DNA of 47,226 nucleotides from IMG/VR virus record IMGVR_UViG_2737471818_000007; one strand, written 5' to 3'. The translations under genes and the position numbers were made by a program. The notes below the pieces were generated by a model, which was given only the letters and a program-made list of their open reading frames with translations, ran no database searches and was not told the DNA's origin. This document shows positions 9,113 through 18,853 of the stretch, in pieces; positions within the stretch are counted from its first letter, which is position 1; each line of letters starts with the position of its first letter. This DNA comes from a virus (taxonomy: Duplodnaviria > Heunggongvirae > Uroviricota > Caudoviricetes).

Positions 9113-9445
9113 TCATACCACGACCTGTTCAAAATTTGCGGTTACCGTGACCCACAGCGCCCCCACACTGGACGACCATTTACGGCAGACCACCCGGACA
9201 GGTGTCCAGCCATAAGGCGGTGTCCACTGAAACGCCCTGACCCCACCGTGCCGGGCCAGAAACGCTTCCAGCGCCTGATGCTCCCCTTTACGGACACGGA
9301 TCGTGACACTGTACGTTGGCAACAGAGGATTCAGTCCCGCCGGACGACGCTGTTCATAACCATCACCCAGTTTAACTGTCACCACTTTGGGCTCTGAATC
9401 CACCTTCATATCCGGACGGACTTTCCAGCTAAATATCTCCATCAC
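9113..9445 (-). CDS. M: tail tip protein M
   Basis: 110-aa ORF resembling lambda gpM; ATGA overlap with the H stop. Confidence 0.88.
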   Translation of the reverse strand: MMEIFSWKVRPDMKVDSEPKVVTVKLGDGYEQRRPAGLNPLLPTYSVTIRVRKGEHQALEAFLARHGGVRAFQWTPPYGWTPVRVVCRKWSSSVGALWVTVTANFEQVVV

Positions 9446-12400
9446 CGGTATACTCCGCTTAACTGCCCGCCATCACGGGACTGTTGTTGCATAAAATCTT
9501 CTGCAGCCCTTTTCCCCAGGTTGTAAACCGCCTGCATGACTTCCGGCCCAATCTGTCCGTTCTGGCCATCATTATTGATCTCGATGTTGTACTGCGGCGC
9601 AAACATCACCATCCCCGAACCACAGGTCGCTGCCACAACACCCAGCTTACCGTCAGCCCCCCTGCGCAAGGGCAGGATAGCCTCAGGCCCCGCTTCACCC
9701 ATCACCCCCGCGCCTTTTGCAAAAGCAAAAAACGTCGGACGGTTAACCACCGTGCCACTGTAGCGACTCAAATCAGCAGACTGATAAACACCACCTTCTG
9801 CATTGGTTTTCACATCACCGAAATCAAACCCCATCACACTGCCAATCCCTTTGACAGCCTTCATCATGGTTGCCTGCGCCAGAATTTTTGCCATATCTGA
9901 CAGCACAGATGAGGTGAAAGATTTGAAATTGAGTTTGCCGGTGGTAACAAAAGTTGCCAGACCATTTCCCATACTACTGAAAGCAGACATAAACATCTGT
10001 TCTGCAGTCCCGGCAGCATTATCCGCGTCGGCAGTAAAATTCATGAACGCGCGTTTTGTACCGTTTCTCCACTCCCCCTGCGCAGCATCCATCTGTTGCC
10101 AGTAGCGGCGATTCTCATTCAGTTTCCGGTTCAGACTGTCTGTCAGCGTCTGTTCAGCCTTCCGGTATGCGTCAGAACCATACGAGCCTTTCTGCTTACT
10201 GTCCCGTTCAAGTTGCTCCAGCTGTTGCTGGTACTGCTGTCGTAGACGCAACTGCGACTGGTACCGCTGCCGTTGCTGATCGCCCATTCCTGCCATGGCA
10301 ACGTCCAGATCGTGTTGCTGACGCTGTGCGCGCTCTTCCTCAGCCAGTTGACTGGTCAGCTGAATGGTCTTTTTCTTCAGGTCATTGAGGGCAGTCTGCT
10401 TCTGCAGCTCCTGCTGTTTTGCATCCAGCAGCGTCAGTGCCTGAATCAGCTCATCCTTGTGAGCCAGTACACTTTTTTCATCTGCTGTCAGTTTTTTACC
10501 GGCTAAATCGCTGATACGCTGCTGAAGGGCCAGAAGCTGTTTATGCGCTTCTGTCATCCTTTCAGTAGCCATGCCCGCTGACTGTCTGGCGGCGGCAATC
10601 TGTCCCTCCACCTGCGCCTGTTGCTGGCTGTACTGCAGTAATAGCCGGGTGGCCTCATCATTACGGGTGGCAGGCGTTTTTTTCTTAATGGCTTTTTCGT
10701 AACGTTCATTTTCACGCTGTATCGCTGCGTCCCTGACCGCCTGATCGGCGTACTGCATGGCATTAATACGCGCAATTTCACGCTGATGTCGTGCTGCTTC
10801 CGTTTCGTTCATCCGGTTCAGCGCGGCATTTTCAGCATTCCGGCGTTTCTGCTGCTCCTGATAATTTCGCTCAGCCTGCTCTTTTGCATCCTGCAAATCC
10901 TGCTGGCGTTTTCGCTCTTGCAGCGCATCCAGTTGTTGCTGATCGTATTCCCCCGTGGTGGACGCCTTAGTCCACGGAAATTTCTTCGCCCGCTGAATTT
11001 TTTCCTGCAGCGACGCAATCTGCGCATCAAGGGAATCTTCCCGACCAATGTTCATGGCCGCATCCCAGAACTGCTTCCACCAGTCAGACAAGGTTTGCAG
11101 CGTACTGCCCAGCGCATTGAGGTTATTATCAATATCCGACGTACGTTTACCGGTTTCCTCTGCCAGTGCAGACATGGCTATCCGGGCTGCGTCACTGGTG
11201 CGCCCCTGCTCTCCGAGCACACGGATCTGTTCAAGCTGGGTGGCTGTCAGAAAATGCAGTTCATCATCCAGCGCCTTCGCAGCACTGACCGGATCATCCT
11301 TCAGCCGTTTAAACTGACTGATGGTGTCACTGACAGACTGCCCTACCGAGCGTTCCATCTGTGCGGCAGCTTTCGCCACCATACCAATATCGCTACCGTG
11401 AAATGCACCGCTCCCCACTACCTGCGCCAGTGACCCCGCCATGGCATGTTGCGTGATGCCATTACCGGAAAGATTTTTACTGAGCGCCCACAACTGCCCG
11501 GCTGTCACACCGGCATAGTGTCCGGTGAGCTCAAGCTGCCGGTTAAAGGCTTCGCCTTCTTCCTGCCCCTCCATCCAGGCTTTACCCAGACCAATAACCG
11601 CAGCAGTGATCCCTCCGATAACTCCCCCCACCGCCAGGCCTTTCGGAGTCATTAATTTATCAATCCAGCCGGCACGGTTAGCCAGGGTGATCCCGGAGCC
11701 ACGAAGCGCACCGAAATTACCTCGCGCCAGCTCACCAATCATGACCCCCAGCTCCCGACGGGCTGCCGCACTTTTCAGTCCCAGCGAATGTGTGGTGTTT
11801 CCGGCTTTCTCCATTTTACGGATGTACACCTCCGCGGCACTGCTGCACCCAAGTTGTGCCGCCTTTGCCCGAAGCAGTTCCGTCGTGGTCATTTTCTGGC
11901 GACTTGTCTGTTCTTTCAGCTGACGAATAAATGCGGTTTTCTGGCGGGTGGCCGTTTCCTCTGCCTGTGTCAGAACGCGGGTTTTCGCTGTCACCTCAGA
12001 AATCAGGGCCAGATAATCCTGCTGAGCAATCCCGCCACTGTTTCTGGCCTGTCGGATCTGCTGCTGAATACGCTGTAACTCCTGCAGCCCCGCACTGGCC
12101 TGTTTTACGCTGTCGATCTGACGATAAAATGCGGCAGCCATCTTATCCTGCGCCGCAGCCAGCGCAGCCGCCTGAACCTGCTCCTCCCGCATCTGACGAC
12201 TCAGGACCTCCATCCGCAGGCGCGCCCTTTCCACATCTTCCGCCAGCGAAACATGCCCCTGCGCATGCTTCACCACGGCCTGAGTCTGTATCACCGTCGC
12301 GCTGGCAGCCTGTTTCTGACTTTCCTCAAACCGTTTCATACGGGCTTCGGCCCGCTCCGCCTCCCTTGCTGTACCATTCAGCAGATTTTTTACACGCGGA

Positions 12401-12465
12401 AGCTGCTCTTTAAAATCGGCGGTATCAATGCTTAAATCAATGACAAGGTCAGCAATCTGGTCCAA
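9442..12465 (-). CDS. H: tail tape measure protein H
   Basis: 1007-aa coiled-coil-rich ORF; C-terminus (NNDGQNGQIGPEVMQAVYNLGKRAAEDF...RDGGQLSGVYR) matches the lambda gpH C-terminus; longer than lambda H (853 aa). Confidence 0.9.
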   Translation of the reverse strand: MDQIADLVIDLSIDTADFKEQLPRVKNLLNGTAREAERAEARMKRFEESQKQAASATVIQTQAVVKHAQGHVSLAEDVERARLRMEVLSRQMREEQVQAAALAAAQDKMAAAFYRQIDSVKQASAGLQELQRIQQQIRQARNSGGIAQQDYLALISEVTAKTRVLTQAEETATRQKTAFIRQLKEQTSRQKMTTTELLRAKAAQLGCSSAAEVYIRKMEKAGNTTHSLGLKSAAARRELGVMIGELARGNFGALRGSGITLANRAGWIDKLMTPKGLAVGGVIGGITAAVIGLGKAWMEGQEEGEAFNRQLELTGHYAGVTAGQLWALSKNLSGNGITQHAMAGSLAQVVGSGAFHGSDIGMVAKAAAQMERSVGQSVSDTISQFKRLKDDPVSAAKALDDELHFLTATQLEQIRVLGEQGRTSDAARIAMSALAEETGKRTSDIDNNLNALGSTLQTLSDWWKQFWDAAMNIGREDSLDAQIASLQEKIQRAKKFPWTKASTTGEYDQQQLDALQERKRQQDLQDAKEQAERNYQEQQKRRNAENAALNRMNETEAARHQREIARINAMQYADQAVRDAAIQRENERYEKAIKKKTPATRNDEATRLLLQYSQQQAQVEGQIAAARQSAGMATERMTEAHKQLLALQQRISDLAGKKLTADEKSVLAHKDELIQALTLLDAKQQELQKQTALNDLKKKTIQLTSQLAEEERAQRQQHDLDVAMAGMGDQQRQRYQSQLRLRQQYQQQLEQLERDSKQKGSYGSDAYRKAEQTLTDSLNRKLNENRRYWQQMDAAQGEWRNGTKRAFMNFTADADNAAGTAEQMFMSAFSSMGNGLATFVTTGKLNFKSFTSSVLSDMAKILAQATMMKAVKGIGSVMGFDFGDVKTNAEGGVYQSADLSRYSGTVVNRPTFFAFAKGAGVMGEAGPEAILPLRRGADGKLGVVAATCGSGMVMFAPQYNIEINNDGQNGQIGPEVMQAVYNLGKRAAEDFMQQQSRDGGQLSGVYR

Positions 12466-12763
12466 ATCTCATTCCTCCCGATATACCTTCCCCCAGATGC
12501 ATCAGCTCTTCATCCGTGCGTTCAGGGATCACCCTGTCATCCGTAACCAGACTGAAATCATCCGCCGGAATACGTTCACCGGACACCATCTGAACCATCA
12601 GCGACTTCAGTGTGGAAATCTGTGCATCCAGCCAGATATCCCCGAAACTCTGCTTCCGGAAGAAATCCCCCCATTCGCCCAGTTCTGACGCTGACATTTC
12701 TGATAACATCCGCCGCCAGTCTGCCCGCCGGAACTCACGGGCAAGCTGCATCACAAACTGCAT
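12449..12763 (-). CDS. T: tail assembly chaperone T segment (expressed as a G-T fusion by -1 frameshift)
   Basis: ORF in the -1 frame relative to G, open from the end of G (upstream codons DTGKVLTRE then MQFVMQLA...); lambda G-T arrangement; probably no independent start. Confidence 0.75.
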   Translation of the reverse strand: MQFVMQLAREFRRADWRRMLSEMSASELGEWGDFFRKQSFGDIWLDAQISTLKSLMVQMVSGERIPADDFSLVTDDRVIPERTDEELMHLGEGISGGMRFGPDC

Positions 12764-12771
12764 CTCCCGCG

Positions 12772-13161
12772 TCAGGACTTTTCCGGTGTCAGGGGAACCT
12801 GTTCACCGTTCTGAACATCACCGGTGGAGACCGGCATACCACTCAGGGATAAAACCAGACTGCCCCCGTCGCCAAGCGCGTCATAAGACCAGGTGTTTTT
12901 TACATCCTCATTCAGCGCATCCACATCCTGTGACGGGTCCGTATTCCACATTGACCGGGAAACCAGCCAGGCATTGATATCCATCCCCATACGCAGAAAT
13001 TCAATCTGACGATCCGCCACCGGCATGGCATCATCCAGGGCGTCAAACTCAGCTGTCCGTTTCTGGACAAACGCCAGATACTCCACCCGCTGAAGTCCGG
13101 ATAATTCTGTCAGTACCACAGACTGATTACCGTAGTTAAATGTGTCCTGTTTCAGAAACAT
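12772..13161 (-). CDS. G: tail assembly chaperone G
   Basis: Track ORF 12772..13191 trimmed to the ATG at 13161 (MFLKQDTFNYGNQ...) preceded by GGAGGGG; resembles lambda gpG. Confidence 0.85.
   Translation of the reverse strand: MFLKQDTFNYGNQSVVLTELSGLQRVEYLAFVQKRTAEFDALDDAMPVADRQIEFLRMGMDINAWLVSRSMWNTDPSQDVDALNEDVKNTWSYDALGDGGSLVLSLSGMPVSTGDVQNGEQVPLTPEKS
12778..12784 (-). other. putative -1 programmed frameshift slip site (GGAAAAG) for G-T fusion
   Basis: mRNA reads ACA CCG GAA AAG TCC TGA in the G frame; a -1 slip at G GAA AAG enters the T frame three codons before the G stop; lambda uses G GGA AAG at the same place. Confidence 0.55.
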
Positions 13162-13217
13162 GTCCCCTCCGTAAACAAAAAACCCCGGCATACCGGGGTA
13201 AAAAACAGACTGCCAGG

Positions 13218-13958
13218 TTAATCACCATTAACGGTAACACCGGCCACAGCAACCTGCGCACCACCCGCAGTCATCCCCACAATCGAGGTGCTGCCCGCTT
13301 TCACACCTTTCACCGTGGCCACCATGCCACTCAGCGTAACCGTGGCGATATCAGGAGATGATGACGCCACGCTCACCGTTTTATCAGAAGCATCTTCCGG
13401 TACTGTGCTGAATGTCAGCGTCGTCGTTGCCCCCACTCTGACACTGGCGGAAACCGGCATTACTGTCAGCCCGGTCACCCCCACAATTTCAGTCCCCTCC
13501 TCAGCCAGATACGGACGCCCCACACCGCTGATTTTAACCGTACGGGTCATCACATCTTTTGACGTAATGGTTTTACCCAGCGAACTCAGCCAGCCGCGGA
13601 ACACATCAACGGTACCGTTAGGGTATTTAATGCGGAATGCACGAACTTCACCGGAATCAAACAACTGAATCAGTTTTTTCTGTCCGCTGTCACCCGGACG
13701 CCAGGCCAGCGTCGCGGATGTATCACCAACAGATTTTTGCCCCTGAGTTGTCGTTTTCCAGTCAGCATTTTCATCATCGAGATAATCGTCATCTTCCGCA
13801 TCTGCAGTCATTTCCCCCGGCTGCAGATCCTTCACCATCGCGAGGCGCAGCCAGTCCGTATCTGACAAAGGATTCGCAAATGCGTCGCCCTTGCCGGTAT
13901 ACATCCAGAACGTCGTCCCCGCCCCTTTCATTTTTTCAAGTGGATTCGGTGTCGTCAT
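13218..13958 (-). CDS. V: major tail protein V (with C-terminal Ig-like domain)
   Basis: Track ORF trimmed to the ATG at 13958 (MTTPNPLEKMKGAGTTFWMY, cf. lambda V [20 protein letters not shown]). Confidence 0.92.
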   Translation of the reverse strand: MTTPNPLEKMKGAGTTFWMYTGKGDAFANPLSDTDWLRLAMVKDLQPGEMTADAEDDDYLDDENADWKTTTQGQKSVGDTSATLAWRPGDSGQKKLIQLFDSGEVRAFRIKYPNGTVDVFRGWLSSLGKTITSKDVMTRTVKISGVGRPYLAEEGTEIVGVTGLTVMPVSASVRVGATTTLTFSTVPEDASDKTVSVASSSPDIATVTLSGMVATVKGVKAGSTSIVGMTAGGAQVAVAGVTVNGD

Positions 13959-17236: not shown

Positions 17237-18853
17237 TTACGGCATACTCATCAGCAGTTCTTCTTCCCCGTTCCCGGCAGTTCCGCCACCGGAAACGGCA
17301 CTGGCGGCATGCTGTGCCATGAAGCGCTCAAAAAGTGTTACCTGTGACGGTTGCGATACTGATGGCGCAGCTGCCAGCAGCGTTTTCGCCTGCTCCACTG
17401 TCATTCCAGGTTGTTCAGCCAGCGCCTGTGCCAGTTTTTCGCGTCCTTTTGCTTCCGGCAACGCAATAATTTGATCGCCGGTACTTGCCGTACCGGTTGC
17501 CGGTGCCGCTGCCAGTAGCATTTTCGCCTGTTCCACCGTCATTCCCGGCTGTTCAGCCAGCGCCTGTGCGAGTTGTTCACGCCCTTTTGCTTCCGGAAGT
17601 ACCATAATCTGCTCGCCGGTACTTGCCGCACCGGCAACCGGTGCCGCTGCCAGTAACGTTTTCGCCTGCTCCACCGTCATTCCCGGCTGTTCAGCCAGCG
17701 TCCGTGCCAGTTGTTCACGTCCTTTTGCTTCCGGAAGTGCCACAATCTGATCGCCTGTGCTGTCAGTACCGGCAACCGGTGCTGCCGCCAGTAATGTTTT
17801 TGCCTGCTCAACTGACATTCCCTGCTGACCTGCCAGCATCTGCGCCAGTTTTTCGCGTCCTTTCGCCTCCTGACAATTCAGGATCCCCATCACGCGCTGA
17901 TTTTCCTGGGACACCGCTTCAGCAACGGTGAGATTTTTTGTTGTCATCGTATTCTCCTGTGTAACAGAGTCGTTCAGAGCAGAAACCATTACATCAACGG
18001 CATCTGCAGCATTAATCAGTTGATCAGCCAGGCCTGTATCAATGCCTGCCTGGCCGTCATAAACGGCAGCCTCGGTATTCATCACCACCTCTGAACTCAG
18101 CCCCGTATAAAGTGCCACCTTGTCGACAAACATCCGGCGGGCCTCATCAATACGGCGCTGAAAATCCGCACGCACACCTGTCGGCAACGCCTGAATACTG
18201 TTGCCGTCAACCTTGTGCTGCCCGGAGTAAATCAGCGTGATATCCACGCCTTCCTGTGCCAGTTGTTTCTCGTAACTGGTGTGCGCCATCATCACACCAA
18301 TCGAACCAATTTTTGCCGTCTGCGTGACCAGCCGACGCGTACAGGCCGCCGCCAGCAACATGGCGGCTGAACAGGCCATGTCATTACACAGCGCCCACAC
18401 GGGCTTCTGTTCCCGCAGACGGTAAATCATGTCAGCACAGTCAAACGCCCCGGCAGCCTGACCGCCCGGACTGTCGATATCCAGTAAAATGCCGCGTACA
18501 TCCGGGTCGTTCACCGCTGACTTAAGACGGGCAGTCAGACCGTCATAACCGGTCATACCGGAATATGGCCGCAGGGTACCCATTTTATGTACCAACGTGC
18601 CGCTCACCGGCAGAATGGCAATACCATTTTTCACCTGGTAACTCTTTACCGGACGCGGACCACCAGTCATATAATCGGTAACCGCCAGCTGCATACCATC
18701 GGCATCAAGCTGAACGGCCTGCTGCGGAACGGCAAGGTTGCCCGCCCCCATCTCCTTACCCAGTGCGCAAAAGAAAACCCGCGCATAGGCGGGTTCCAGT
18801 AAAAGCGGCTCATTAAATGCCATCGCGGCAATATGTGATAAATTACAGCGCAT
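17237..18853 (-). CDS. C: head maturation protease C (S49/ClpP-like) with scaffold (Nu3-like) C-terminal region
   Basis: 538-aa ORF; N-terminus and protease core are collinear with lambda gpC; C-terminal region carries four tandem copies of a ~46-aa unit; start overlaps the B stop. Confidence 0.9.
   Translation of the reverse strand: MRCNLSHIAAMAFNEPLLLEPAYARVFFCALGKEMGAGNLAVPQQAVQLDADGMQLAVTDYMTGGPRPVKSYQVKNGIAILPVSGTLVHKMGTLRPYSGMTGYDGLTARLKSAVNDPDVRGILLDIDSPGGQAAGAFDCADMIYRLREQKPVWALCNDMACSAAMLLAAACTRRLVTQTAKIGSIGVMMAHTSYEKQLAQEGVDITLIYSGQHKVDGNSIQALPTGVRADFQRRIDEARRMFVDKVALYTGLSSEVVMNTEAAVYDGQAGIDTGLADQLINAADAVDVMVSALNDSVTQENTMTTKNLTVAEAVSQENQRVMGILNCQEAKGREKLAQMLAGQQGMSVEQAKTLLAAAPVAGTDSTGDQIVALPEAKGREQLARTLAEQPGMTVEQAKTLLAAAPVAGAASTGEQIMVLPEAKGREQLAQALAEQPGMTVEQAKMLLAAAPATGTASTGDQIIALPEAKGREKLAQALAEQPGMTVEQAKTLLAAAPSVSQPSQVTLFERFMAQHAASAVSGGGTAGNGEEELLMSMP
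17360..17875 (-). repeat. four in-frame tandem repeats (~138 nt each) inside gene C
   Basis: Peptide unit LPEAKGREQLAxxLAEQPGMTVEQAKTLLAAAPxxGxxSTGxQIx repeated four times (residues ~327-498); the nucleotide repeats are visible by eye. Confidence 0.85.

Follow-up and report, generated by a model that had tools for sequence, protein, structure and literature searches.

A predicted G-T programmed -1 ribosomal frameshift at G GAA AAG in the tail genes of a lambda-like Escherichia coli prophage

The stretch of DNA analysed here, referred to as the window (47,226 nucleotides; IMG/VR record IMGVR_UViG_2737471818_000007), contains a block of phage tail genes in which homologues of V, G, T, H and M were assigned by Pfam in the lambda order. 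The tail tube gene and the tape measure gene flank the G/T pair on the same strand, and the M homologue also lies downstream of T. All features of the G-T region are on the minus strand, as follows.

13218..13958, minus strand: major tail tube gene, V homologue with a C-terminal Big_2 domain, directly upstream of G (Pfam PF16461 Phage_TTP_12, E=7e-68)
13172..13199, minus strand: terminator-like hairpin ACCCCGG-TATG-CCGGGGT followed by TTTTTTGTTT, between V and G
13161..12772, minus strand: gene G, tail assembly chaperone, 129 aa (Pfam PF06894 Phage_TAC_2, E=3.6e-38)
12775..12802, minus strand: G/T overlap of 28 nt in which both frames are open; the upstream -1-frame stop is TGA 12805..12803
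12784..12778, minus strand: candidate shift heptamer G GAA AAG, with P site GAA 12783..12781 and A site AAG 12780..12778; GGA AAA in the -1 frame
12449..12778, minus strand: T segment after the predicted shift, 109 codons (12778..12452) and stop TGA 12451..12449 (Pfam PF06223 Phage_tail_T, E=1.4e-13)
12751..12763, minus strand: start-like codons in the T frame, namely ATG 12763..12761 (the RefSeq 'T' start), GTG 12754..12752 and ATG 12751..12749, not conserved in the family
9442..12465, minus strand: tape measure gene, H homologue, 1007 aa (Pfam TMP_2, Tape_meas_lam_C and TMP_4; RefSeq annotation)

The PF06894 match spans residues 1-119 of the 129 residues in the G product, and the identical sequence carries the RefSeq annotation gpG. 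The product begins with MFLKQ..., and its start codon ATG 13161, which is also the RefSeq start, is preceded by GGAGGGG; judged from these features, G most likely starts here rather than at ATG 13191 of a longer open reading frame. The latter codon is inside the terminator-like hairpin, which stands just 5' of the G Shine-Dalgarno sequence. Phage Ayreon has an annotated terminator at the equivalent position and the match rows of mEp460 list one too, and the hairpin between V and G may reduce how strongly G, T and H are transcribed in comparison with V. On the other side of the pair, the tape measure gene starts at TTG 12465 and overlaps the end of the T frame by 17 nt, an overlap that also exists in cdtI, Gifsy-1 and Fels-1, where it is 29 nt. 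Farther along the same strand, upstream of the decoration and major capsid genes, a 538-aa protein is encoded (17237..18853, minus), whose translation includes four tandem copies of a ~36-aa unit, LPEAKGREQLAxxLAEQPGMTVEQAKTLLAAAP...

In its own frame, the 3' end of G reads ...CTG ACA CCG GAA AAG TCC TGA, with the stop TGA at 12774..12772. The T frame is +2, which is -1 relative to G. The initial annotation had correctly placed G GAA AAG at the G/T junction and T in the -1 frame, and the same frame relation was found in every relative analysed. It had also described the T frame as open from three codons before the G stop in exactly the lambda arrangement; the frame is instead open from 12802, 28 nt or 9 codons before the stop, and it is the heptamer that begins three codons before it. 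The arrangement likewise departs from that of lambda, as the G stop lies 1 codon past the heptamer here and 5 codons past it in lambda. GGAAAAG is the sole shift-prone motif in the 28-nt overlap, which contains no canonical X XXY YYZ heptamer (positions 1-3 of GGAAAAG are GGA and not a homotriplet) and no other slip site, canonical or A/T-rich. The bare count of the 7-mer is not significant, as the window holds 13 copies where 7.5 +/- 2.6 would be expected. Its significance comes from its position and conservation, for which the comparison with relatives is decisive.

In RefSeq/PGAP, G and T appear as separate CDSs, T beginning at ATG 12763 (12449..12763 of the window, minus strand), and this separation was seen in all three E. 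coli records examined, two of them copies at least 96% identical and one a ~75% relative. The second product is most probably a 237-aa G-T fusion made via a frameshift, in which 128 residues of G would be followed by 109 of T (join(13161..12778, 12778..12449), minus strand). Identity between the T product and lambda T is 37%.

Sixteen complete E. coli genomes, most of them from cattle, carry prophages that match the G-T segment at more than 99% identity, and a very common prophage type with ~75% identity to the segment occurs in ~1,800 of 5,426 complete E. coli genomes. Phages cdtI, mEp460, Ayreon and Tritos are likewise ~75% identical to it, and for the Salmonella prophages Gifsy-1, Gifsy-2 and Fels-1 the figure is 68-71%. 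For a wider family scan, an alignment of T proteins was run against one genome per bacterial species and every junction was analysed, giving 57 distinct relatives with ~34-75% T identity.

Some matches came from assemblies with unexpected labels. One set (L144-L156) consists of lambda-like T matches, all 38% identical to the query, in assemblies of, among others, Neobacillus, Oceanobacillus, Pseudomonas, Shewanella, Kitasatospora, Chromatium and Leeuwenhoekiella; several of these loci are on low-coverage contigs, some of them ~48.4-48.5 kb long, and the set looks like contamination of assemblies with lambda control DNA. Enterobacterial-prophage-type G-T loci were also carried by metagenome-assembled genomes labelled Bacillota, Proteobacteria and Geobacteraceae (L091, L094 and L117). 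The T proteins of L091 and L094 are 74-75% identical to that of the window and the one of L117 is 41% identical, with a junction the same as those of several Enterobacter loci; these three are probably mis-binned contigs.

The heptamer ends exactly 32 nt from the LAREF motif of T in 53/53 distinct loci. When the candidate site was located in each relative purely by this distance, its sequence being disregarded, 57 distinct loci were compared, in which the site reads GGAAAAG in 46, GGGAAAG (the lambda type) in 6, GGCAAAA in 2, and GGGAAAA and AAAAAAG in one each; other variants are GGTAAAG in Pantoea, AGAAAAG in Morganella and C CCA AAA in a Vibrio phage. Comparing slip sites across relatives, as had initially been proposed, puts GGAAAAG at 46/57 and GGGAAAG at 6/57, and the oddness first implied for G GAA AAG does not hold, since it is the majority heptamer of the gene family and the phi80 record already annotates it as a slippery sequence.

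The synonymous positions of the heptamer are almost invariant. Position 1 is the synonymous third-codon position of a G codon that itself varies (CCG, GCG, CTG, ACG, TTG or GTG), and the codon usage of these G genes would put G there in 22.9 of 56 loci, whereas 54 have it. At the A site, AAG is used in 53/56 loci, compared with 44% of the lysine codons elsewhere in G, and the P-site glutamate codon is GAA in all 46 cases, compared with 56% elsewhere in G. Binomial P values for this synonymous fixation range from 1e-12 to 1e-19 and are overstated, since they ignore shared ancestry among the loci. In an entropy table of third-codon positions, for which the loci were anchored on A_AAR, the neighbouring positions have an entropy of ~1.9 bits, indicating that synonymous sites are otherwise saturated; the contrast of the heptamer with its flanks is unambiguous despite shared ancestry. 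With the A_AAG core and the G at positions 1-2 conserved, the synonymous sites fixed and the register to the T domain fixed, the comparison indicates that selection acts on the nucleotides of the heptamer.

The -1 model, which holds for T in all relatives, gives G-frame open reading frames of 130-185 aa; a +1 model was rejected, as it would leave G-frame open reading frames of merely 6-102 aa. The 0-frame stop follows the heptamer after 0 codons in 5 distinct loci, after 1 codon in 21 and after 5 codons in 27, and this variation shows that a nearby stop is not a conserved element of the site.

Given the G and T protein families, the gene context, the frame relation, the nucleotide-level selection and the switch of conservation between frames, all of which support the initial reading of a conserved G-T frameshift, it is likely, with a probability of roughly 0.8, that a lambda-like E. 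coli prophage uses this site for its G-T programmed -1 ribosomal frameshift. In this reading, most ribosomes would translate G (129 aa) and terminate at TGA 12774..12772, and a small fraction would slip back by one base at G GAA AAG with tRNA-Glu in the P site and tRNA-Lys in the A site. The tRNA-Lys would move from AAG to AAA and re-pair perfectly, better than before the slip, and the tRNA-Glu (anticodon UUC) would move from GAA to GGA, keeping the first-position G:C and third-position A:U pairs with a G.U in the middle. Translation would then resume at GTC 12778..12776 in the T frame to yield the 237-aa fusion, of which, by analogy with lambda, the G part would bind the tape measure protein and the T part would recruit the tail tube protein. 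The occurrence of the shift, the slip by both tRNAs and the efficiency are inferred. A tandem -1 slip of both tRNAs is the best-supported model for the site, and the selection on position 1 suggests that P-site re-pairing matters.

The P-site codons in the family are all GNA, and the E. coli tRNAs for GNA codons have C36 and a modified U34, so that positions 1 and 3 could re-pair in every variant of the family. The middle pair after the shift would then be G:C for GGA, G.U for GAA, G.G for GCA and G.A for GTA. The initial description of the pairing in the window, with A-site re-pairing from AAG to AAA preserved and P-site re-pairing from GAA to GGA imperfect through a second-position mismatch, agrees with Peng et al. 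2019 (PMC6924986), and its prediction of either reduced G-T efficiency or tolerance of a P-site mismatch is reasonable.

A frameshift that is real but made by tRNA-Lys alone, on the tetramer A_AAG or the hexanucleotide NNA_AAG, with tRNA-Glu not re-paired and the conserved GG serving another role, is the strongest of the alternatives and still an improbable one. The variation at heptamer position 3, which gives the P-site codons GAA, GGA, GCA and GTA, would fit it, as would the inability of the middle position to pair in G GCA AAA and G GTA AAG and the site A GAA AAG in Morganella, and shifts at NNA_AAG without full P-site re-pairing are known from IS1222 (G_CGA_AAG) and Bacillus subtilis cdd (A_CGA_AAG) (PMC5009743). 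Nevertheless, the excess of G at synonymous position 1 (54/56 versus 22.9) is what re-pairing at the first P-site position predicts, and a P-site codon of the form GNA throughout would leave both positions 1 and 3 re-pairable in every variant.

Biochemical studies bear on how often such a slip could take place. It is well documented that A_AAG is shifty in E. coli because tRNA-Lys moves from AAG to AAA (PMC5009743; PMC4066793), and A_AAG is the best tetramer in this species (PMC4066793), and heptamers with X_XX = G_GA are a recognised intermediate class (PMC5009743). In the reconstituted E. coli system of Peng et al., AUG GAA AAG gave mainly the 0-frame product and was called 'unfavorable for slippage', and G GGA AAG shifted readily under limiting EF-G (PMC6924986). 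In the measurements of Sharma et al., motifs with a single slippery codon shifted at ~0.15% when no stimulator was present, and a pseudoknot raised this to as much as 5.6%, the value for A_AAG (PMC4066793). Since lambda needs only about one G-T per 30 G (PMC5009743), a weak site is compatible with function; the efficiency of the shift in the window is probably at or below the roughly 1:30 of lambda, and the G-T ratio in the clade of the window may be lower than that of lambda.

The protein-level conservation around the site points in the same direction as the nucleotide pattern. As far as the heptamer, the G frame is the better conserved of the two in amino acids; directly past it the T frame is, with conserved residues V/A-L-x-x-E-L-x-F, and stops in the T frame of the relatives are frequent 6-9 codons upstream of the heptamer. 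Such a pattern is the signature that a frame switch at the heptamer, and not internal initiation, would leave.

Production of T as a free protein from its own start, either ATG 12763 or GTG 12754/ATG 12751 behind GGGAG, would make a frameshift unnecessary, and it corresponds to the stand-alone T CDS in RefSeq/PGAP and in several phage records. The GGGAG of the window does stand 9-12 nt upstream of GTG 12754/ATG 12751, a feature found in the sub-clade of the window only. However, ATG 12763 abuts GGGAG with no spacer, and the codon equivalent to it is CTG or CTT in Gifsy-1, Fels-1 and Gifsy-2. T has no conserved start codon in the family, and about half of 50 distinct loci contain no ATG, GTG or TTG between the upstream T-frame stop and LAREF. 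In addition, the T-frame residues are conserved from the heptamer onward, that is, upstream of the start-like codons. Lambda T is said to be made only as G-T, a result ascribed to Levin, Hendrix and Casjens in 1993. Free T is thus very unlikely, and translation of T through the frameshift at G GAA AAG remains the preferred reading.

A chance occurrence of GGAAAAG, which the number of copies in the window might suggest, or a frame change by RNA polymerase slippage on the A run can be practically dismissed, because the position and sequence of the site are conserved across dozens of species-level relatives and because a run of four A is far below the homopolymer tracts known for transcriptional slippage, which are far longer.

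No stimulatory element common to the family was detected. The window shows no conserved downstream structure, with fold z scores of -0.9 over 95 nt and -0.3 over 50 nt past the heptamer, and the family mean is z = -0.06 for 51 distinct loci, no better than shuffled sequences. An upstream Shine-Dalgarno-like element 6-17 nt before the heptamer occurs in 18/53 loci, compared with 4-17 in control windows, which is not convincing, and the window has no such core upstream of the heptamer. A search of 12300..13300 against Rfam returned no family, its sole match being sub-threshold and on the terminator-like hairpin between V and G.

A separate observation concerns three loci of Leclercia and Atlantibacter, in which GGAAAAG is followed without any gap by a strong hairpin (-19.5 to -23 kcal/mol; z = -3.3 to -4.3). 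It is absent from the clade of the window and from most other relatives, and it may be a lineage-specific stimulator; as a family-wide stimulator, a downstream hairpin was rejected, since it is strong only in the Atlantibacter and Leclercia sub-clades.

Judged from its genes and sequence, the site of the window belongs with the tail assembly chaperone frameshifts of the lambda G/G-T family. It shares with lambda the homologous G and T proteins, the V-G-T-H-M order, the T frame at -1, an AAG A-site codon preceded by A, the distance of 32 nt from the heptamer to LAREF, and the lack of any conserved stimulatory structure found. It differs in the heptamer itself, which in lambda is G GGA AAG with perfect pairing of tRNA-Gly and in the window is G GAA AAG, where tRNA-Glu would have a middle G.U after the shift. 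The T segment of the window is also shorter, with 109 aa compared with ~144 aa in lambda, and is without the C-terminal repeat of lambda T. The lambda G-T frameshift has reportedly been studied by Levin, Hendrix and Casjens (1993) and by Xu, Hendrix and Duda (2004, 2013 and 2014), and PMC5009743 gives a summary of this work.

Closer precedents for the heptamer exist among other phages, and a G-T frameshift with GGAAAAG is already known from the phi80 annotation and the Gifsy-1 and Gifsy-2 hybrids. In phage phi80 (GenBank FN582354.1), GGAAAAG at 10194..10200 is annotated as 'slippery sequence for -1 translational frameshift', and the identical heptamer, a joined gpG-T CDS and the same gene order are shared with the window; its T is ~44% identical, and its G stop, lambda-like, lies 5 codons past the heptamer. 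In Gifsy-1, Gifsy-2, Fels-1, cdtI, Ayreon and mEp460, the junction is CCG GAA AAG (T/C)CC TGA, the same as in the window, and Gifsy-1 and Gifsy-2 carry annotated G+G' frameshift hybrids. T identity in this group is given as 61-75%, with Fels-1 at 64% and Gifsy-2 at 53%, and DNA identity as 68-75%; these are separate prophages, in which the C-terminus of G upstream of the site diverges from that of the window.

Outside the phages, pea enation mosaic virus has a site, G_GAU_UUU_UGG_UAG, that shares X_XX = G_GA and a mismatch at the middle P-site position (PMC5009743). Its 0-frame stop is one codon past the heptamer, as in the G_GAA_AAG_UCC_UGA of the window, and the nearby 0-frame stop matters in that virus (PMC5009743). 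Heptamers of the G_GA type are also present in insect-specific flaviviruses, dianthoviruses and mesoniviruses (PMC5009743). These RNA virus systems differ in that they are eukaryotic, their A-site codon is UUU, their 3' RNA stimulators are strong and their genes are unrelated. E. coli dnaX (A_AAA_AAG) and IS1222 (G_CGA_AAG) rely, as the site of the window would, on the one tRNA-Lys of E. coli, which pairs weakly with AAG and re-pairs with AAA; dnaX differs in that an upstream Shine-Dalgarno-like element and a downstream hairpin bring about high efficiency, neither of which is conserved in the G-T family.

As to how much of this is new, a literature search, with Xu, Hendrix and Duda 2004 outside its coverage, found no phage paper on GGAAAAG in phage tail genes. 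The PRFect tool names 'twofour' and 'twofive' as additional classes of motif in the overlaps of phage tail chaperone genes, and these, judged by name, would fit GGAAAA. The mildly new part of our results is quantitative, namely that GGAAAAG is the majority heptamer among species-level relatives, with its synonymous positions fixed, and that the GGGAAAG of lambda is in the minority; the predominance of GGAAAAG may already be in print, for example in the comparative survey of Xu et al. 2004. The combined proposition that G_GAA_AAG predominates as the G-T site among enterobacterial lambda-like phages, is maintained through purifying selection and works in nature through second-position G.U re-pairing of tRNA-Glu is a tentative one, and we consider it doubtful as a whole.

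For the lambda G-T paradigm, which is well established, the present site adds little, and its practical value is a point of annotation, given that G and T are listed separately and that ~1,800 complete E. coli genomes hold relatives. Beyond that, G GAA AAG is a convenient natural test of P-site mismatch tolerance on E. coli ribosomes, at a low-efficiency site without a stimulator. The energetics of second-position mismatches have so far been outside the model of Bock et al. 2019, and if the combined proposition is true, they would become measurable here. These prophages would then offer a system in nature that, free of any stimulator, achieves a low G:G-T ratio with a sequence that biochemists have used as a 'poorly slippery' control.
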